A stretch of 64,000 bases of DNA from a virus (Duplodnaviria > Heunggongvirae > Uroviricota > Caudoviricetes), in IMG/VR virus record IMGVR_UViG_3300045988_158233; one strand, written 5' to 3'. Of the stretch, positions 2,903-57,177 are shown in pieces; position 1 is the stretch's first letter, and the number at the start of each line of letters is the position of its first letter. Under the pieces are notes generated by a model that made no database searches, was not told where the DNA came from, and saw nothing but the letters and a program-made list of their open reading frames with translations. Both the position numbers and the translations under genes were made by a program.

Positions 2903-3092
2903 TTTAGACATTATTTATATGGCTGTGAGGTTTAAAATGCGATCTCACAGCCGCAATCATAGGGATATATTAGTGAGTTACTAGATACGAATTTGAACAG
3001 CCGTTAAACGGCATATGCATAGATAGGTAAGTATATACCTATAATTGAAAGGAGAAGTGTGATATAAATCCGCCATCCCGATTTGACTTTTC

Positions 3093-3428
3093 ATGGAGGA
3101 AAATATGTCGAACGAGATGGCGGGCGTTACAACAGAGCAAGTTGAGCGTATTGCCGCGATCGTTGCTCGGGAGGTTGTTGGTAAATTAGGTAAAGAGCTA
3201 CGTGAAGAAATTGGCCAGGAGGTCAATGATCAGCTGAAAACCTACTTTGGTGATATGACCCCGGCGCAACATAGTATTCAACACTCCAATCTGGACAAAC
3301 TCCTTAACCGGTTAGATTCCATCTCCAGTGGGTTCTTTGGCGGCATTGTTTCTAAAATAACGTCGTTCATTATTACTGCACTGCTTTTGGGGTTAGCCGC
3401 GTATGGCGTAAAAAATGGACTGCAATAA
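3093..3428 (+). CDS. Small membrane protein with one C-terminal TM helix; possible holin (by position only)
   Basis: 111-aa ORF; C-terminal hydrophobic segment ITSFIITALLLGLAAYGV; directly precedes and overlaps the next gene ahead of the spanin pair. Confidence 0.3.
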   Translation: MEENMSNEMAGVTTEQVERIAAIVAREVVGKLGKELREEIGQEVNDQLKTYFGDMTPAQHSIQHSNLDKLLNRLDSISSGFFGGIVSKITSFIITALLLGLAAYGVKNGLQ

Positions 3429-4134
3429 CAGGAGATCAAGGATGAAGACTCCGAGAGGCATTCGTAATAATAACCCCGGTAATCTTGATAAAGGATCACC
3501 GTGGCAAGGTCTGGTTGCGAATCCAGACGAACCGCGCTTTTGCACGTTTAAAGACCCTGTTTGGGGGATTCGTGCGCTGGCGGTGACTCTAATTACCTAC
3601 CACGACAAACGTCGCGCAAAAGACGGCTCAAGTATCGATACCATTCGTGAAGTTATTGAACGTTGGGCACCGCCGAATGAAAACAATACTGACGCCTACA
3701 TTAATGAGGTGTCTAAAGCCGTTGGTGTAACCGCAGACATGATCATCGATCTGCATGATTACGACATCCTTCGACCTTTGGTTGAGGCAATCATTCGCCA
3801 TGAGAATGGGCGAGGTCCGCTAAAAACGCTGAACACCTGGTATGCGGCAGAAGTTATTGAGGAAGGTCTGCGTCGAGCTGGCGTCGTTAAGCCGGTGAAA
3901 ACCGTGAAGGCTGTTCCTGTAACTAAAGAAACCGCAGGCGCAACTGTCACAGCAGGTATTGGTCTGGCGCAGCTGGCCGATGTTATGCAGCAGGTTTCCG
4001 CTGCTATGGATAAAGCACAAGGTCATATCTCTAGCGGGGATACAGTACGCATCATCTTCGGTATTGCCACTATTGTTGTGGCAGGATTCATTGCCTGGTC
4101 GCAGGTAAGAAAACACCAGAAAGGGATGGTCTAA
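3415..4134 (+). CDS. Conserved phage protein in endolysin position (fold not recognised), C-terminal TM anchor
   Basis: 239-aa ORF with GIRNNNPGNL motif near the N-terminus and hydrophobic C-terminus IIFGIATIVVAGFIAWSQV; lies between the putative holin and the spanins. Confidence 0.35.
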   Translation: MDCNNRRSRMKTPRGIRNNNPGNLDKGSPWQGLVANPDEPRFCTFKDPVWGIRALAVTLITYHDKRRAKDGSSIDTIREVIERWAPPNENNTDAYINEVSKAVGVTADMIIDLHDYDILRPLVEAIIRHENGRGPLKTLNTWYAAEVIEEGLRRAGVVKPVKTVKAVPVTKETAGATVTAGIGLAQLADVMQQVSAAMDKAQGHISSGDTVRIIFGIATIVVAGFIAWSQVRKHQKGMV

Positions 4135-4135
4135 T

Positions 4136-4387
4136 ATGCTAGGCAGCCTGATGACAAAGCTAAAAGTTGCTTTGATTACGCTGGCTGCCGTTCTTTTCGT
4201 TCTTGTCGGCGCTTACACGATGGGCGGAAATGCGGCGCGACGAGCAATGGAAGAGAAGGCAAAACAGGAAGACAGAAAACGACTTCAAAGCACAGTGGAT
4301 GTCAAAAATGAAACGGTTAATGAAGTGCGGCAAAAAGATGCCTCTGGTGTTCATCGCGAGCTGTTTGATAAATGGGTGCGTGATTAA
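4136..4387 (+). CDS. Putative i-spanin (Rz-like)
   Basis: 83-aa ORF; N-terminal TM helix VALITLAAVLFVLVGAY followed by a charged, helical periplasmic region; the o-spanin candidate overlaps it in another frame. Confidence 0.5.
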   Translation: MLGSLMTKLKVALITLAAVLFVLVGAYTMGGNAARRAMEEKAKQEDRKRLQSTVDVKNETVNEVRQKDASGVHRELFDKWVRD

Positions 4388-4535
4388 GACGCAGGCTCCA
4401 GGCGTGCTATTCTGCGATGCTGCAAATCCTATCTATGTGAGTAGAGAGGATTTTATGACTGAGGAAACGGAGCGACAGTTGCTTATCCACAATACGATAG
4501 GTGAAAGGCTGTGTGAGTGGGGGCACCTGAACTGA
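4308..4535 (+). CDS. Putative o-spanin (Rz1-like outer-membrane lipoprotein), overlapping the i-spanin in a different frame
   Basis: Internal Met of track ORF 4203..4535 gives MKRLMKCGKKMPLVFIASC-LINGC: lipoprotein signal with lipobox-like IASC; starts inside the i-spanin ORF and extends past its stop. The exact start (4308, 4320 or 4338) is uncertain. Confidence 0.5.
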   Translation: MKRLMKCGKKMPLVFIASCLINGCVIKTQAPGVLFCDAANPIYVSREDFMTEETERQLLIHNTIGERLCEWGHLN

Positions 4536-4759
4536 GTCGATGATTGATGAGTGGTCTCAGTTTACCTTTTATCCTAAAGATGGCATCTTCACTCATATAC
4601 ACGCCTGTTCACTCAAGCTCATGTTGAATCATTTAGTAATTTGATGTAGATTTATTAGGCATCCACGTAAGTGGACACATACAGGCTACGCATCCTCGTA
4701 GCCTTCAACCCCGAGAGGGGTGCCGCAATGACACTTGTGTTAACGGCTAAGGTGGACAC

Positions 4760-5143
4760 ATGCTGAACGAGAAACGTTCTATACAAACTATTCGCGATTG
4801 CACGAGTATTATCGAGACTCATGTGCTGAATCAGCACAAGCTTGAAGTACGTAAGCTCAATAATGACGCTATTGAACCGGAAGACTCACGCTTCATCGTT
4901 ACCTTCAAAGACGATGTTGAGCGCGCTGGTGCAAGCGTGAAGCCATTAGCTGAAGCAATTTACCTGAATGGTCGTGTTCGTTTTGTAGTCAAGCCAGCTA
5001 AACAGTACCCTGAGCTGTCTCGTTTTATCGAGGCTTTTTCGGAGGTTATTGAACATTCTATTCGCCGCTTCTTACGCAATCATGGTAGCATTGTCAGCAC
5101 GGTTAAGGCTGATGATTCTGCTACAAAATGGCTCCTACACTAG
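4760..5143 (+). CDS. Hypothetical protein
   Basis: 127-aa ORF in the track, co-oriented with the backbone. Confidence 0.4.
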   Translation: MLNEKRSIQTIRDCTSIIETHVLNQHKLEVRKLNNDAIEPEDSRFIVTFKDDVERAGASVKPLAEAIYLNGRVRFVVKPAKQYPELSRFIEAFSEVIEHSIRRFLRNHGSIVSTVKADDSATKWLLH

Positions 5144-5880
5144 ATAGCGCATATTCAAAAGATCTAAGCGAGTTTCCTCATAAAGGGGAGACTCGTGTTG
5201 TTCGTTTTGGCTTTCTTATCAATGAAGCCTCCCTCTATAAAATCTCAGAAATTGAAATCATTGAACCAGAAGATGACATTTGCCTGTATGTCTCTATGGA
5301 ACGTGTAGGTGCGCGCGACCAAGGCGACCTGAGCGAATTCATCTTAGATCGAGCGGATGAAGATGCCCCTGAAGAAGAGATTATCAAAGAGGTGCTCCAG
5401 TCCGGGCTTCTGGACGAAAACAAAAATACGATCGCTGGTAGGATAGCTCTGCGTGAATATAGTTTTGTTGAAGACGGTAATGAGATCGAATGTTACCAGG
5501 TAGCCGGTGTCGAAACTGTCAGAGAGCGTCGTCAGCGAGGATTGTGTCACCGTACCTATCTCTTTCTTCTTCATTGGTATGAGCATTTAGTCTGCGACGA
5601 TACACAAACCATTCCTGGTGCTAAGATCTGGGCAGGGCCTCTCATGCGAACCGGCGATGTGCGTATATACAATGCCAAAACAGAAACGTTCGAGGATGTG
5701 TTAGGTGAGTACGGGATGGGGAAAGAAACCGGATTTTTGCCGTGGAACAGAGGATTGTTGCTTGATGCAGAGTTAAGCTCTTGGCTCCCAAACAAAGTGC
5801 AAGTTAACGTTCAGAAATTTATCGTACTTATCATCTCCCGCAAAACAAGAACTCCAGTAGGTTTATACCTAAAAGATTAA
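5128..5880 (+). CDS. Hypothetical protein
   Basis: 250-aa ORF, acidic; followed by a hairpin terminator. Confidence 0.4.
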   Translation: MAPTLDSAYSKDLSEFPHKGETRVVRFGFLINEASLYKISEIEIIEPEDDICLYVSMERVGARDQGDLSEFILDRADEDAPEEEIIKEVLQSGLLDENKNTIAGRIALREYSFVEDGNEIECYQVAGVETVRERRQRGLCHRTYLFLLHWYEHLVCDDTQTIPGAKIWAGPLMRTGDVRIYNAKTETFEDVLGEYGMGKETGFLPWNRGLLLDAELSSWLPNKVQVNVQKFIVLIISRKTRTPVGLYLKD

Positions 5881-8320: not shown

Positions 8321-8376
8321 AGCCTGTTTCTGTATATAAATAATAAGTAACTTATTAAATATATACGGAAGCAGGT
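8321..8376 (+). other. Long conserved hairpin (copy 1 of a family with 53698..53731 and 55461..55519)
   Basis: agcctgtttctgtatata ... tatacggaagcaggt: ~14-16-bp stem with two G-U pairs and an AT-rich loop, followed by T-run. Confidence 0.5.
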
Positions 8377-8482
8377 CTTTTAAAAGACACCACCAGACCA
8401 ACTCCCTTCCGTTTTCACTTCCAAAAACTGACACCAGTCGCTATCATCCGCTCATTGTGATAAGTAAGTAACTACCTACCAG

Positions 8483-18008: not shown

Positions 18009-18083
18009 GATGGTGTAGCTCAGCGGTAGAGCAGTTGGCTGTTAACCAACTGGTCGGTGGTTCGAATCCACCCACCATCGCCA
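18009..18083 (+). tRNA. tRNA-Asn (anticodon GTT)
   Basis: Manual fold: acceptor gatggtg/caccatc, T-arm ggtgg-ttcgaat-ccacc, anticodon loop ctGTTaa, 3' CCA encoded. Confidence 0.75.
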
Positions 18084-18088
18084 ATTTA

Positions 18089-18175
18089 GGAGAGTTAGTC
18101 CGTAGAGGTAGCGGGGTAGACTGTAAATCTACTGTCATTGCGACTCGGGTGGTTCGACTCCATCACTCCCCACCA
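18089..18175 (+). tRNA. tRNA-Tyr (anticodon GTA), class II with long variable arm
   Basis: Manual fold: anticodon stem gtaga/tctac with loop ctGTAaa, long variable arm, T-loop ttcgact, 3' CCA; one A-C mismatch in the acceptor stem. Confidence 0.65.
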
Positions 18176-18179
18176 AATT

Positions 18180-18255
18180 GCCGGTTTAGCTCAGTTGGTA
18201 GAGCGCCTGCCTTGTAAGCAGGATGTCAGCGGTTCGAGTCCGTTAACCGGCACCA
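18180..18255 (+). tRNA. tRNA-Thr (anticodon TGT)
   Basis: Manual fold: acceptor gccggtt/aaccggc, anticodon stem cctgc/gcagg with loop ctTGTaa, T-loop ttcgagt, 3' CCA. Confidence 0.75.
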
Positions 18256-18479
18256 ATACAACGATAAGATCATTACGGTTAATCGTCGTTCATGTGCACA
18301 ATGACTGGTCGAAAGGTAGTGATCTTACCGTTGTGGTGGATTCGCAGACTGATGCGATAGCTTTCTTGGATGTTAGGGAAATGCGGCCGCAAATCTTCCC
18401 TTTCGCGAGCGGTGATCGTCCGTAGTCCTAATTGGCTGCACCGTATGCCGGAGATTCAGTACCGGCTATCACAACGGCC

Positions 18480-18566
18480 GGAGAGTAGGGAGCATGGTGC
18501 TCAAGCGGTCTTGAAAACCGTCCCATTGCGCAAGCGATGATGGTTCGATTCCATTACTCTCCGCCA
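18480..18566 (+). tRNA. tRNA-Ser (anticodon TGA), class II with long variable arm
   Basis: Manual fold: acceptor ggagagt/actctcc perfect, anticodon loop ctTGAaa, long variable arm, T-loop ttcgatt, 3' CCA. Confidence 0.7.
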
Positions 18567-18751: not shown

Positions 18752-19972
18752 TTAATTAAAACCGAATGAATTAAGTTCTGCTTTGAATTTATCGACCATT
18801 TTTTCAACTTCGTTTACAATTGCGTGAATCTCTTCGTCTTTTCTCGGATTAGAATTGAGGTCAAAATATGCCTTATATAAGGCATATTTTGACAAGCTTC
18901 CTTCAATATTTTCAGAGAAAATATTGGTACGACCATCAGTTAATAAGATATCAGCAGATCGGGAATTTAAATTATATTTATAGTAAATCTTTATTAGTCT
19001 GCTTATCTCTTTTTCATTCTTGATTACCCTCTGTCTTTTACCAGCAATATTAAGACTCCAGCCTACATAACTAGTCAGATCGGAATTAAACTTACACACT
19101 TCCGCATCAGCTTTTTCCATATTTAGATTAATATTATTTCTCATGTGTAGCGGTAATTCGTTGAATTTTTGCTGTAAATGCTGTTTGCAGGGATTGTTGT
19201 AAGACCACAGAATTGCGAACGTAGCTCTTTGCATCCGGGTATTCAGATCGATGTTAAAGTTCTCACGATCACGAATCATTTCATCTACATAAAACTCTAC
19301 AGCTTTTCGGTATTCTTTGTTAAAGATCTCGGTAACATACATTTCTAAATAATGGACTTTCGAGATTGCCTCATCAAAAAAAAGCTCACTCTCAAAGAAG
19401 TTGTATTTATTTAAGAGATTAGAAAGTCTACTTAAGTCATAGGTTTTATTATTTTCAATATTAAGACCAAAAATGGCAATTAACAGACTTACTTTATGAT
19501 TAATACTGCTACGTAATTGAGCTATATAAATTCTCTTTTCATCTTCTGCTGATGACAGTAGATAAAACTCTTTATCTAAATAATTTAAAATTAGAATTAT
19601 GTGATTTACATATTTAATGTAAATAGGTTGTTTTGTTACATAATAATAAATGCTTTTGATGGAATTAATGCTCAATTTCGTATTAAACTCTTTGTCATTC
19701 AACAAAGTGTTATTTACGTCCTCAAGTAATTTATCATGTTGCTCTAGTAATATTCCGTACCATTCCTTAAAAGAGGCTTTTTTCATTTCAAGAAGTGAAT
19801 CTGCCGTTAATTGTGTTGCCTTCATTGCAGCTTTTGCACTATTTCTTGCCTCATAAGCAGCCCAAGCAGTAACAAAAGTAGCAAGTGAACCTATAGCCTC
19901 TTTGTATTCTTTAGCCACATCCCAAAAAATAATAGTTATTACACACAATATGAGAATTAATATTAAAGGCAT
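18752..19972 (-). CDS. Hypothetical membrane-anchored protein (AT-rich moron; candidate exclusion/abortive-infection-type function)
   Basis: 406-aa minus-strand ORF; N-terminal TM helix PLILILILCVITIIFW then a K/E/N/I/Y-rich helical domain; very AT-rich codon usage compared with neighbours (by eye). Confidence 0.6.
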   Translation of the reverse strand: MPLILILILCVITIIFWDVAKEYKEAIGSLATFVTAWAAYEARNSAKAAMKATQLTADSLLEMKKASFKEWYGILLEQHDKLLEDVNNTLLNDKEFNTKLSINSIKSIYYYVTKQPIYIKYVNHIILILNYLDKEFYLLSSAEDEKRIYIAQLRSSINHKVSLLIAIFGLNIENNKTYDLSRLSNLLNKYNFFESELFFDEAISKVHYLEMYVTEIFNKEYRKAVEFYVDEMIRDRENFNIDLNTRMQRATFAILWSYNNPCKQHLQQKFNELPLHMRNNINLNMEKADAEVCKFNSDLTSYVGWSLNIAGKRQRVIKNEKEISRLIKIYYKYNLNSRSADILLTDGRTNIFSENIEGSLSKYALYKAYFDLNSNPRKDEEIHAIVNEVEKMVDKFKAELNSFGFN

Positions 19973-20638: not shown

Positions 20639-21742
20639 ATGAAAAATAGCTTTGACAGAGCACGCGCTGCGGAGAACACCTCAAAAGAGGCGATAGAGTA
20701 TCTCGAAAGAGCATCTCAAATGCAGGCCGTTATGATCTCCCAGGTCAGCAATGACATGAGATTCTCGGACGCATTCATGTTATTCACTCGCTTATCTCTG
20801 CTGATAACCAGACGTCGGCCAGAGATCGCTGTTCATTGTATTTTGATACATGTTTTGCCGCACATTGCCGATGTAAAAGTAAGTGACATTAATAGGTTCA
20901 TGGTGAACCAACTGGTCAACCCACTAATACTGGATGGCAAAATTGTTATGGGCCGCCGCGTTTTCTCTCTGATGAAGCAGTTCCTTAGCTGGTGCGCCTT
21001 CCAGGGGATGATAGACGTGTCACCGTTAAACGATATGTCACTTAACAAAGTTGCCGGTGGCGCAAAGCCCACACCTCGCGAGCGGAAGCTGACCGACGCA
21101 GAGGTATGGGTGTTCTGGAATATATGGGACTACTTCAATGTGTGTGCTGGTACAAAATGGGCGGCCAGGCTGTGTCTTGTATCAGCAAGACGACCTGACG
21201 AAGTACTGCGGGCTAAAAAAAGTGAGTTCAATCTTAAGCGTGGGGTTTGGAATCAAGGCAAGAGGAACAAATCTGCCCGTGAGCATTCTCTGCCTTTAAG
21301 CTCATTAATGCGCACTTGTATTGAAGAGTTGTTCGAATATGGTAAAGACAGCCAGTGGCTCGTGCCTTCGAATAAAAAAATCGGGAAAGACCTTCCTATG
21401 TCTAAAGTGGCAATAGCCCAGGCATTACGTCGTATTCTGGAACGACCAGAACTGATGGAGCTTGAGCCATTTACACCCCGAGATTTGCGCCGTACTGCGC
21501 GTAGTTACTTCCCAGCATTAGGCATAAGCCAGGAGGTATCACGTAAAATCATGAACCACAGTCTTGAGGGGATAGATCGGGTCTACGACCGGCACGATTA
21601 TATGGACGAGATGCGAGACGCCTTAGAAAGTTTCTCGACGTACATCGCATCAATCGTAGAGCAACCGGATTTAGACGAAATTGACCACAAATTTAAGGGA
21701 GATCGTCTATCAACAGAGCTTATTCGTGTAAATTTTTCATAG
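20639..21742 (+). CDS. int: Tyrosine recombinase / phage integrase
   Basis: 367 aa; catalytic-domain residues in order: R in ARRPDEVLR, H-x-x-R in HSL...RRTARSY, and Y in RVYDRH. Confidence 0.75.
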   Translation: MKNSFDRARAAENTSKEAIEYLERASQMQAVMISQVSNDMRFSDAFMLFTRLSLLITRRRPEIAVHCILIHVLPHIADVKVSDINRFMVNQLVNPLILDGKIVMGRRVFSLMKQFLSWCAFQGMIDVSPLNDMSLNKVAGGAKPTPRERKLTDAEVWVFWNIWDYFNVCAGTKWAARLCLVSARRPDEVLRAKKSEFNLKRGVWNQGKRNKSAREHSLPLSSLMRTCIEELFEYGKDSQWLVPSNKKIGKDLPMSKVAIAQALRRILERPELMELEPFTPRDLRRTARSYFPALGISQEVSRKIMNHSLEGIDRVYDRHDYMDEMRDALESFSTYIASIVEQPDLDEIDHKFKGDRLSTELIRVNFS

Positions 21743-54833: not shown

Positions 54834-55439
54834 TTGAGAAAGAAGATGATTGCAGCCGAAAAAATCAAAAAGCGAAAGCGCGACAACTCTCTTCGTGACC
54901 TCTGGAGAACACCTGACTGGCTGTTTAATGCCATTCAACGTTATCTGGGAGTGACATTTGATGTTGACGTTGCCTGCAATAAGGACAATGCAAAGCTGCC
55001 TATTTTCATAGGCGTTGAGCGCGATGCTTTGAAATCTGAATGGGGGCAGCCAGGTACAATTGCCTTCCTCAATCCACCCTACTCCAAAATCTCCCCCTGG
55101 ATTGATGCGGCTATACGTGAGCAGGCTCGCGGAGTTACAACAGTGATGCTAATTCCTCAATCCCTCGATACAAAGTGGTATGAGCGTGCAACAGAGTGTG
55201 CGAATGAGACGATTATTCTGTCTGGTGGCCGCGTAGCGTTTGTCGAGCCTGACGTCAATCTGGGTCAGGTAGAAGTAAACATCAACCCCGGTGGCAGTAT
55301 GCTCGTTGTTTTTCGCGGATTCTGTCAGGACGCTGGGCACTCTATAAGCAAGATCCCTTTGGACGTCATGAAAAGTCTGGGAGGGTATGATCCTGCGAAT
55401 GTGATCAGGAAAAAAAGACCATCAAAGAAGGCTGCTTAG
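54834..55439 (+). CDS. Phage-type DNA N6-adenine methyltransferase (Dam-like)
   Basis: 201 aa; catalytic NPPY in IAFLNPPYSKISPW; overall size and layout of small phage Dam enzymes. Confidence 0.6.
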   Translation: MRKKMIAAEKIKKRKRDNSLRDLWRTPDWLFNAIQRYLGVTFDVDVACNKDNAKLPIFIGVERDALKSEWGQPGTIAFLNPPYSKISPWIDAAIREQARGVTTVMLIPQSLDTKWYERATECANETIILSGGRVAFVEPDVNLGQVEVNINPGGSMLVVFRGFCQDAGHSISKIPLDVMKSLGGYDPANVIRKKRPSKKAA

Positions 55440-55460
55440 TTTGCTCTGGCGTCTGTAATT

Positions 55461-55519
55461 AGCCTGCTTCTGTATATATAAATAACTACATATTAATTAT
55501 TAATATACGGAAGCAGGCT
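55461..55519 (+). other. Long conserved hairpin (copy 2 of the family seen at 8321..8376)
   Basis: agcctgcttctgtatata ... atatacggaagcaggct: 16-bp stem with one G-U pair, ~27-nt AT-rich loop, followed by gtttt. Confidence 0.55.
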
Positions 55520-55601
55520 GTTTTGTATCAGAGACTCCCAGACCTGAACATCACTACAGAATCCACTAGAACCCCTTCCCAGACGCTTTAAAATCGATTT
55601 T

Positions 55602-55856
55602 ATGAACCACTTTAAGGAAACCAACATGTCATACCCGACTAATGTCGTTGCGCTCGTAGAGAGCGATTTTCTGGCCCAGGCTCGTGAAATGATGAAAGAT
55701 CGTGAGCAGGCCTTCAACTTGTACGAATGGGCAATTAAGTGCTTGCATCTTGGCGAGCATCGCGAACTTGTTGAACAGCTTTTAGGTGAGTTGATCAATG
55801 AGGTGTTTGCCTTGAATGTTCAACTACATGGTAGAGAAAATAATCAATCACAATGA
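55602..55856 (+). CDS. Hypothetical small protein
   Basis: 84-aa ORF. Confidence 0.35.
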   Translation: MNHFKETNMSYPTNVVALVESDFLAQAREMMKDREQAFNLYEWAIKCLHLGEHRELVEQLLGELINEVFALNVQLHGRENNQSQ

Positions 55857-56438
55857 TAGATAAGTACAAACTATTCATAAAGTGAATTGTAAGTGCTAAG
55901 ATCTGATAGTTTCCAGTCGTAGACTGGAGGCTCGATCTGATGGGTGGGGGTAAGCGTCACTGGCGTCAGGTTTAAAAAAGCTCACTACCAGCGTAGAACC
56001 GGTGCCGTTTAGGTGTCGGGGAAGGGGGAACCAAAGTGAGCAGAGACAAGGGTCACTTTATGATTGTCGAGTCTGGGGTGTTTCGAGAGGTTGAATCCAG
56101 TACTCCCCTTCATAAAGTGTGGGAAGATCTCGGTTCTGGGGTGCTGTCATCCATAACTTCCCAAGTCTAAGCTGGCAGTAGACTTAGACCATAGCTTTTC
56201 AGGTTATGAAACGACCAGGTTGGTGAGGAATTTTATACTCACCTCCCTGGGAGAGTATTACCTGAAAAGACAACCTCTCACTTCGTTCGAGGTGAACTTC
56301 ACTCACTTCGTTCGTTCAGTTCAGGTTTATAAAAACCTGTTCTGGGAAGTAATTTGTTTATTTTAATAATTATTAACACGCACGCGTGTGCGCACGCGCG
56401 AGGAAAAAATCGGCGCGGCGCTTGATTCAGGAGTTTAT

Positions 56439-57032
56439 ATGACGACGAAGACACCAGCCCGATCGCAAGCAAAAACTCGCAAAAAAGACAAAAACAAAAA
56501 TTCTCCCCGCACCAATCCCACAACGCCTGTCGTAGAGTTCAACCCCCAGCTTAAAACCGTGAAAATCTTTAGTGATGGCTCTTGCCTCAAAAATCCGGGT
56601 GGCCCGGGCGGTTACGGTATCGTTCTCCAGTATCGTGGTGAGGAACGCGAGTTCTCAGATGGTTTTCATAGCACCACCAATAACCGCATGGAGATGATGG
56701 GGGCACTTATCGGGCTGGAGCGTTTGAAATATCCATGCAACGTTATTTTGTACTCTGATAGCCAGTATCTGAAAAACGGCATGACACAGTGGATGAAATG
56801 GTGGAAACGTAATGGATGGATGACTTCTGATAAAAAACCGGTAAAGAATGTTGATCTGTGGAAACGTCTGGATGAGGCCGCAAGTCGACATAATGTTCGC
56901 TGGAAGTGGGTTAAAGGTCACGCCGGGCATCGTGAAAATGAAATATGTGATCGACTCGCGAAGATCGCAGCTTTTTCCGCAGCCGATACGCCTCACAAGA
57001 AAGACATTGGTTTTATTTACAACAAGTGGTAA
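56439..57032 (+). CDS. Ribonuclease H (RNase HI family)
   Basis: [65 protein letters not shown]; start placed at ATG with RBS caggag (track ORF begins 56388). Confidence 0.8.
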
Positions 57033-57177
57033 GTAAGTGTTTACCTATCATATTAAATCATGTATCTTATCGGCGTCAGGATGACAATGTGTCGGTAAGA
57101 CACAGTTCCAGGATGGAACGAGAAAGGCGGCTGGCGATCGCCAGCCGCAACTCTTTCTGACACTGGATGGAGTCCAC

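Follow-up and report, generated by a model that had tools for sequence, protein, structure and literature searches.

The window analysed here, a 64-kb stretch (64,000 nucleotides, nt) of viral DNA from IMG/VR record IMGVR_UViG_3300045988_158233, very probably carries an expressed and independently transcribed gene for a structured RNA of ~450 nt, which extends on the + strand from ~55909 to 56365 and has a multi-helix fold kept by compensatory changes on that strand. It lies in a gap between a small hypothetical gene and the gene for RNase HI (rnhA), for which an earlier note, made from the sequence alone, had named three candidates: a replication origin, a packaging site and a structured non-coding RNA. 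Sequence conservation, covariation, the asymmetry between the strands, an anatomy with promoter- and terminator-like elements and published expression data now give the last of these strong support. The RNA is most likely neither a leader of rnhA nor a DNA-level site; it is a new family, in a new genomic context, within the broad and already known group of large orphan structured RNAs that mobile elements carry, and a core component of the SSU5/pHCM2-type phage-plasmids of Enterobacteriaceae.

A conserved block in a long intergenic gap

The identity of its relatives together with its gene order places the window among the SSU5/pHCM2-type phage-plasmids of Escherichia coli. The 1.8 kb around the gap are 98% identical to the Escherichia phages Cyrano (pLF82), CMS-2020a and PhiR41_1 and ~78-82% identical to Salmonella phage SSU5 and Klebsiella phage-plasmids, and a Dam methyltransferase gene is followed in order by the small gene, the gap, rnhA and further + strand genes; the RNA lies in the replication and early region. 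The gap (55857-56438) measures 582 nt against 162 and 145 nt for the adjacent gaps, and the open reading frames (ORFs) within it encode only 30-48 amino acids (aa), none of them conserved; the first impression of an unusually long intergenic region with no credible + strand ORF is therefore borne out.

The gap contains a conserved block of 425 nt with sharp edges at ~55929 and ~56353, shared with relatives from Salmonella, Klebsiella, Enterobacter and Citrobacter. In a sliding comparison with ten relatives, identity is 92-98% across 56000-56300, as against 65-83% in the flanking genes (Dam, the small gene, rnhA and those farther out), the nucleotide conservation of the block thus exceeding that of the neighbouring protein genes; it drops to 45-80% in the stretch 56300-56500, which includes a previously noticed palindrome and is the least conserved part of the gap. 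The G-rich tracts GGGTGGGGG (55942-55950) and GGGGAAGGGGG (56018-56028) and the direct repeat CTCACTTCGTTCG (56277-56289 and 56302-56314) listed in the earlier note are all present and fall within this block, which the note had not singled out. A blastn search with the gap alone recovered 687 plasmid and 12 phage records with 88-100% identity over query positions ~74-565, the plasmids belonging to Klebsiella, Escherichia, Enterobacter, Salmonella (including pHCM2), Citrobacter, Cronobacter and other hosts. As 232 of the 234 E. coli copies are on plasmids, the block is not a borrowed host sequence. Since the 59 non-redundant copies are very similar to one another, we sought diverged members via the small protein encoded upstream, and found such versions, with nhmmer scores from 485 down to 10 bits, on the contigs L179-L181, L183, L184 and L186-L188 (L numbers being our contig labels). 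Scanning IMG/VR by pattern for strongly diverged members yielded only two matches, both of them chance ones in coding sequence.

Covariation and strand asymmetry of the fold

The structure was obtained as the RNAalifold consensus of the 59 copies and comprises 128 base pairs with nearly no broken alignment cells. Several lines of evidence showed that compensatory substitutions go beyond both shuffled and slid controls: 1) in the 59 sequences 99.7% of the cells pair, and 63 cells carry double changes, as against 15.8 in shuffles. 2) In a 22-sequence alignment that includes the diverged members, 96.2% of the cells are paired in the same structure, and 28 of the 128 pairs show double changes, as against 11.4±2.3 in shuffles (0/500). 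3) When the pairing partner is slid by 1-3 columns in the latter alignment only 36-48% of the cells pair, and across all covariation tests the slid controls give 21-55%. 4) In a sub-domain of three helices (56117-56191, + strand), whose length of 75 nt is identical in every member, 14 of 19 pairs are compensatory, including 7/7 in the last helix, and 97.6% of the cells pair. This sub-domain is the best-supported part of the fold and provides a signature of the family, hereafter family 1: a covariance model built on it, R1, recovers every family-1 member, including the most diverged, at 64-97 bits, and nothing else.

The paired columns further contain 327 G·U cells versus 35 A·C cells; hence the fold works only on the + strand, and pairing is 96.2% with this strand as RNA and 85.7% if the - strand were the RNA. 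Selection for the G·U pairs acts on the + strand RNA and not on the DNA. Many unpaired nucleotides are also invariant, such as ACCAGCG, UUGUCGA, GAUCUCGGUUCUGGG and CUGGGAAG, which are kept even in the most diverged members.

Expression in lysogens and anatomy of the gene

Misson et al. (PMC9928086) re-analysed RNA-seq data of E. coli LF82 (GEO GSE154648) and reported CYRAN_81, an annotated ORF of phage Cyrano (44 aa, 135 nt, GTG start; 56036-56170), among the genes that lysogens transcribe, with a level 12-fold above that of the Cyrano background. The normalised values in their S1 Table are 117 for CYRAN_81, 9.5 for the upstream small gene and 8.4 for rnhA, which places the published counts on this segment ~12-14-fold above either neighbour (~12-fold relative to the upstream gene and ~14-fold relative to rnhA). 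The same study gives CYRAN_81 log2 values of 6.8-10.35 fragments per kilobase per million reads in 10 of 10 samples, with the top value in macrophages at 6 h. Cyrano is 98% identical to the window and CYRAN_81 lies wholly within the RNA; therefore, in the plasmid-prophage state the region appears to form a transcription unit separate from its neighbours. RNA-seq coverage, by which a transcriptionally silent region was originally to be recognised, thus puts transcription within the RNA far above that of either neighbour in lysogens of an element 98% identical to the window.

The proposed gene begins with a predicted sigma-70 promoter (55874-55902, + strand) that combines a TTCATA -35-like element (55874-55879), a 17-nt spacer and an extended -10, TGcTAAGAT (55894-55902), with a predicted transcription start at ~55909-55911. 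The pattern TGnTAnnAT stands at a constant distance from the hairpin that follows in most lineages (TGATAAAAT, TGATACAAT, TGTTAGAAT and TGCTAAAAT), the exceptions being the Klebsiella clade (TGTAGAAT), in which the spacer base is missing, and L179 and L183, which have a C in the hexamer. This 5' stem-loop (55909-55931, + strand) begins 6-8 nt past the extended -10 and is variable in sequence and constant in pairing, since all of the 38 distinct upstream variants form it, with at least 10 different stem sequences. It is followed by the conserved multi-helix core (55932-56353, + strand), with both G tracts and both copies of CTCACTTCGTTCG, and by a 3' compound stem with a U-rich tail (56315-56365, + strand), the probable 3' end or terminator of the RNA. 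The hairpin of the latter (56317-56344) is closed by ...CTGG GAAGT and covaries (UA versus GC), the 3' domain has a z of -4.4, and the U-rich tail in SSU5 reads AAGUUUUUCUUUU. Beyond the RNA, the alignments reveal an AT-rich spacer of variable sequence (56366-56376), an alternating purine/pyrimidine tract (56376-56401) and a conserved GAGGAAAAAATCG (56400-56412, + strand).

A constant upstream gene and variable downstream genes

The only constant neighbour of the RNA is the small gene upstream (55626-55856, + strand), which encodes a protein of 76 aa with three predicted helices and matches the PHROG family phrog_5343 (E 7e-53). A homologue of 74-78 aa stands directly upstream of the RNA in every lineage examined, including those that carry the second RNA family described below; the Dam gene is absent upstream in L186-L188. 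The AlphaFold2 model of the phrog_5343 protein has three helices (pLDDT 80), and a Rop-like or RNA-binding fold was rejected, as Foldseek returned no match with E < 3 in PDB or BFVD. The Dam gene is followed at 55456-55524 by a long hairpin (GCCTGCTTCTGTATATAT...ATATACGGAAGCAGGC, then TGTTTTGT) whose loop is AT-rich and which is probably a strong terminator; a similar hairpin occurs near 8340-8400.

Downstream of the RNA, most lineages have rnhA (56439-57032, + strand; Pfam RNase_H, E 1e-45), which is a usual but not an obligatory neighbour, being replaced or absent in L087, L088, L176-178, L179, L184 and L187. Its place is taken by an opposite-strand gene in a Salmonella Senftenberg plasmid, by betT in pEH4236, by a DUF7557-like gene and then a Tad2-like anti-Thoeris gene in L179 and L187, and by an opposite-strand pair of OLD-TOPRIM and UvrD-helicase genes typical of Gabija in a Buttiauxella plasmid; in L162-L164 (IMG/VR, about 450-2500) an insert of ~2 kb with ORFs of 222 and 315 aa separates the RNA from a truncated RNase H match. 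The recombination breakpoints with these foreign genes fall just past GAGGAAAAAATCG (56400-56412), and L087, L088 and L184 keep the sequence through this motif and then diverge. Immediately after the RNA there is thus a hotspot at which cargo, including defence and anti-defence genes, is found in place of rnhA or beside it (3395-5231 on the minus strand of L184, 4105-4416 in L179, 3098-3412 in L187 and 2266-3436 in L088). These comparisons show the RNA to be independent of which gene follows it and constantly linked to the phrog_5343 gene, and the connection with RNase H implied in the earlier note does not stand, as the RNA persists where rnhA is replaced, displaced or absent.

This variability bears directly on the proposal, which we consider unlikely, that the RNA is a cis-acting leader, attenuator or riboswitch-like control of rnhA and the downstream operon. 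Such a leader would consist of a large sensor fold above a 3' expression platform, in which the duplicated CTCACTTCGTTCG pairs alternately with CGAGGTGA. In most members the RNA does immediately precede rnhA, with both on one strand, its terminator-like 3' stem precedes a gene with reads ~14-fold below its own, and the repeat allows two mutually exclusive hairpins. However, there is no constant same-strand gene to control: at least 6 downstream contexts are found, several of them on the opposite strand, and the RNA is kept ahead of opposite-strand genes (L184, L087, L176-178), of unrelated genes (betT, DUF7557-like, Tad2-like) or of the ~2 kb insert (L162-164). Moreover, the fold is far larger than any known leader, and the two-hairpin switch had to be rejected as a conserved feature because diverged relatives lack the second copy of CTCACTTCGTTCG and have a shorter GNRA hairpin instead.

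Two further features of this neighbourhood deserve mention. The RNase HI protein has an N-terminal extension of ~38 aa rich in Lys and Arg (56439-56555), which is missing from chromosomal rnhA and has a similarly basic counterpart in plasmids with the second RNA family; the relatives of this RNase H among the genome contigs are chromosomal rnhA genes only. An imperfect copy of the palindrome TAAGTA-N-TACTTA (55861-55873) adjoins the -35 position of the predicted RNA promoter, where it may act as an operator or phage-specific promoter element, and the motif precedes both RNA families in all lineages. In the window the palindrome TAAGTA-N2-4-TACTTA recurs intergenically at 3028, 8461, 13729, 17245, 22156, 24813, 35079, 37028, 49979, 55861 and 57030, usually right past a stop codon and directly before a -10-like hexamer (TATAAT, TATCAT), and GTAAGTA occurs 13 times against 4.9 expected. 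With this distribution it looks like a dispersed operator or phage-specific promoter element, and the inverted repeat resembling TAAGTA..TACTTA in P1 late promoters offers a possible lead. The 145-nt gap past rnhA (57033-57177) also carries the motif. It contains in addition a hairpin rich in GC, GCGGCTGGCGATCGCCAGCCGC (57127-57148), which was flagged on either strand as resembling a terminator; a stretch homologous to this gap is found in L186 and L187, although rnhA is absent there.

A second structured RNA family at the corresponding position

Klebsiella phage-plasmids of the pCAV1099-111 and pRHBSTW-00636_4 types display the order Dam, phrog_5343 (49% identical), a long gap and RNase H (37-51% identical). 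This gap contains a different conserved element of ~480 nt, family 2, which is present in 30 plasmid records (e.g. L171 3375-3875, L172 3465-3965 and L185 2259-2758) and in which 13 pairs show double changes, as against 6.9±1.6 in shuffles (0/500). Neither the family-1 nhmmer profile nor the covariance model R1 detects any similarity in these loci, hence family 2 is not a detectable homologue of family 1. Family 2 has no match in Rfam, and the family-1 profile has none in other RNase H-bearing viral contigs. Three family-2 plasmids have a reverse-strand gene in place of RNase H and retain the RNA. In L186, which carries a family-1 RNA, the small protein is 62-66% identical to the family-2 proteins versus 53% to the protein of the window; it therefore appears, from this relationship, that one RNA was displaced by a non-homologous one at a conserved locus. 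Given that an unrelated RNA of ~480 nt fills the same position, the slot appears to require some such structured RNA.

Replication, DNA-level function and coding as explanations

A quite unlikely alternative is that the RNA is a replication pre-primer, comparable to ColE1 RNA II or to the T4-type R-loop; the G-rich transcript would form a persistent hybrid near the AT-rich spacer and, once processed by RNase H, would prime DNA synthesis. It resembles RNA II, which works with RNA I and Rop, in several respects: both are plasmid-borne, constitutively expressed and folded RNAs of similar size (~450 nt here and ~500 nt in RNA II) near a gene for a small helical protein, and an RNase H-dependent logic is plausible in view of the RNase HI gene adjacent in most members, the G tracts and the AT-rich stretch directly after the RNA. 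The RNA is likewise expressed in the plasmid state, and the Cyrano copy number of 5.5 (PMC9928086) is above the value usual for P1-type plasmid prophages. Against this, the RNA contains no minus-strand promoter-like site from which an antisense RNA I could arise and has no match to the Rfam family RNAI, the linkage to rnhA is dispensable, and a typed RepA replicon, IncFIB, is already present on these plasmids. Further, the spacer that would hold the priming site is poorly conserved, and an unrelated RNA fills the slot in relatives with replicons of other types. The region also has no GC-skew inflection, DnaA boxes, iterons or tandem repeats, which argues against the replication origin originally considered.

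The alternating purine/pyrimidine tract was the feature most stressed in the earlier note, which described it as a GC-only palindrome capable of forming a cruciform or Z-form. It is a (CA/CG)n tract, cacgcacgcgtgtgcgcacgcgcg (56377-56400), and no other alternating run in the 64 kb reaches 20 nt (3 overlapping matches versus 0.08 expected; 0/100 shuffles); it is, however, GC-rich rather than GC-only, its palindromic character is not conserved, and it belongs not to the RNA core but to that part of the gap where conservation is lowest. It is very unlikely that the element as a whole works at the DNA level, for instance as a lytic origin, pac site or recombination site that acts through a cruciform or Z-DNA at this tract. 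In favour of such a site are the statistical uniqueness of the tract, the retention in most lineages of an alternating (CA/CG)n run, 11-27 nt long, that separates the RNA from the gene downstream, and the clustering of breakpoints with foreign genes just downstream of it. However, such a site leaves the 425-nt block unexplained, whose variation obeys RNA pairing rules including G·U, and the sequence, length and symmetry of the tract differ between lineages, to the point of its being partly deleted in pHCM2 and shortened in L179. The repeats typical of a pac site are also missing, as are those of an origin, so that the packaging-site proposal fares no better. As RNA, the tract folds no better than shuffled sequence in 3 of 4 lineages. 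It may be part of the promoter or 5' leader of the gene that follows, or stimulate recombination at the border of the variable region.

It is scarcely credible that the block is conserved because of one or more small proteins such as the 44-aa CYRAN_81, even though the ORF at 56036-56170 is annotated in Cyrano and listed there as a transcribed "moron", since it is broken in at least 6 lineages and not conserved in frame (1-2 nt indels cause frameshifts in the Klebsiella clade, L122, L156/157 and L184, the start codon is absent and stops are present in L183, and the start codon is absent in L179), conservation is even over the 425 nt with no codon periodicity, and the substitutions in the helices are compensatory.

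Relationship to known RNA classes

A check against Rfam with Infernal, which the earlier note had named, was run on several levels and no family matched. At the gathering threshold only tRNAs were found, at 18009-18252; cmscan against Rfam 15 with E up to 10 returned for 55300-56700 only chance matches of miRNA and snoRNA type; the diverged members gave no Rfam match at E up to 1; and none of the families ROOL, GOLLD, OLE, HEARO, raiA, RNAI, 6S, tmRNA, RNase P and introns in Rfam 15 was matched, nor was c4, if Rfam includes it. The tRNAs belong to a cluster at 18009-18566 (Asn-GTT, Tyr-GTA, Thr-TGT and Ser-TGA), of which ARAGORN detects 4 and Rfam, at the gathering score, 3. A search of the literature for a non-coding RNA of SSU5 or pHCM2 found none described, and no annotated feature overlaps the RNA in the listed RefSeq records of E. 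coli.

Bacterial RNAs of more than ~400 nt with complex conserved folds are rare, and those with known functions are mostly ribozymes or central components of ribonucleoproteins (RNPs). The closest in general character are ROOL and GOLLD, large orphan structured RNAs that are often found in prophages and phages, are several hundred nt long, multi-helical and non-coding, and form multimers. The RNA described here is like them in its size, its multi-helical fold, its many conserved unpaired nucleotides and its occurrence on mobile or viral genomes without encoding a protein; unlike them, it has no match in Rfam 15, its hosts are phage-plasmids of Enterobacteriaceae, and it has a fixed partner gene, phrog_5343. 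With OLE RNA it shares the combination of a large structured RNA with a genetically linked gene for a small partner protein, and hence an RNP is the natural working model. OLE RNA resides on Bacillota chromosomes and has membrane proteins as partners (PMC12054373). No homology was found between it and the present RNA, whose partnership with phrog_5343 is suggested by synteny only.

The remaining comparisons are with smaller RNAs of phages. Among plasmid-prophages and satellites, the immunity and regulatory RNAs c4 (P1/P7) and CI (P4) are ~70-80 nt long and control an adjacent operon as antisense regulators. Like them, the RNA of the window is expressed in the lysogenic state of a phage-plasmid, but it is about six times larger and has no antisense match of at least 12 nt in the window, where complementarity to + strand transcripts amounts to four 11-nt matches only. 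Among candidate antisense targets, short same-sense matches near 19300-19500 and a weak nhmmer match at 21390-21450 were rejected as chance matches inside ORFs. The pRNA of phi29, a packaging RNA of ~170 nt in lytic phi29-like phages, is likewise a phage-encoded structured RNA, has a structural role and recalls the packaging function first considered; unlike it, the present RNA is expressed in lysogens and lies in the replication and early region, and the two do not match. As regards type III toxin-antitoxin systems, Tandem Repeats Finder found no repeats in 55500-56700 and there is no constant toxin gene downstream.

Proposed mode of action and significance

We propose that transcription would start at a host sigma-70 promoter with an extended -10, 6-8 nt ahead of a protective 5' stem-loop, and would end at the 3' compound stem with its U-rich tail, with the consequence that the RNA would accumulate in the plasmid-prophage state. 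It might then act in trans through its tertiary fold, as a protein-binding scaffold or decoy in an RNP, possibly together with the phrog_5343 protein, and its likely role would be in maintenance or host-interaction functions of the plasmid-prophage. The invariant unpaired nucleotides, the expression in lysogens and the fixed small-gene neighbour make an RNP scaffold or decoy the simplest of these options, and suggest that the RNA works through its three-dimensional shape.

Certain points weigh against the interpretation of the block as an independently transcribed RNA gene with such a function. Both ends of the RNA are predictions. A generic promoter scan gave no flag at 55874-55902, and as a terminator signal the 3' tail found here, AAUUUGUUUAUUUU, is weak. 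The published RNA-seq reads are counts over the 135-nt annotated ORF only, with strandedness not established. Several core helices are invariant in close relatives, and the evidence for them comes from a few, imperfectly aligned diverged sequences; the multiloop-closing helices and the long hairpin at 56199-56274 pair less well in the L179 clade. Finally, the tests run identified no molecular partner or activity, and the model of the phrog_5343 protein gave no informative fold match in the Foldseek searches of PDB and BFVD (best E 4.9), a short helical protein being a weak query.

The RNA occurs in ~690 plasmid sequences from Enterobacteriaceae of clinical importance. Rfam has no entry for it, and one published annotation mistook it for a hypothetical protein "moron". 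Genetically tractable hosts are at hand, namely E. coli K-12 lysogens of PhiR41_1 or Cyrano and Salmonella LT2 with SSU5; together with the partner gene and the unrelated RNA in the same slot, these make the function of the RNA directly testable. The cargo hotspot just downstream makes the locus in addition a useful landmark for annotating phage-plasmids. We tentatively raise the further possibility, more speculative than the RNA gene itself, that the small protein gene and the large RNA gene form a conserved two-gene unit, a new functional RNA-protein module of SSU5-type phage-plasmids. If so, the RNA would represent a new class of complex-folded RNA, acting as an RNP scaffold, as a decoy against a host defence or RNA-processing factor, or as a ribozyme, and the occurrence of two non-homologous RNAs in one slot would point to a modular function, carried out by RNA, of a kind so far undescribed in phages and plasmids. 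This module would be expressed from the plasmid-prophage, with expression rising inside macrophages, and would be present in pHCM2 of Salmonella Typhi and in widespread plasmids of Klebsiella, Enterobacter and E. coli.

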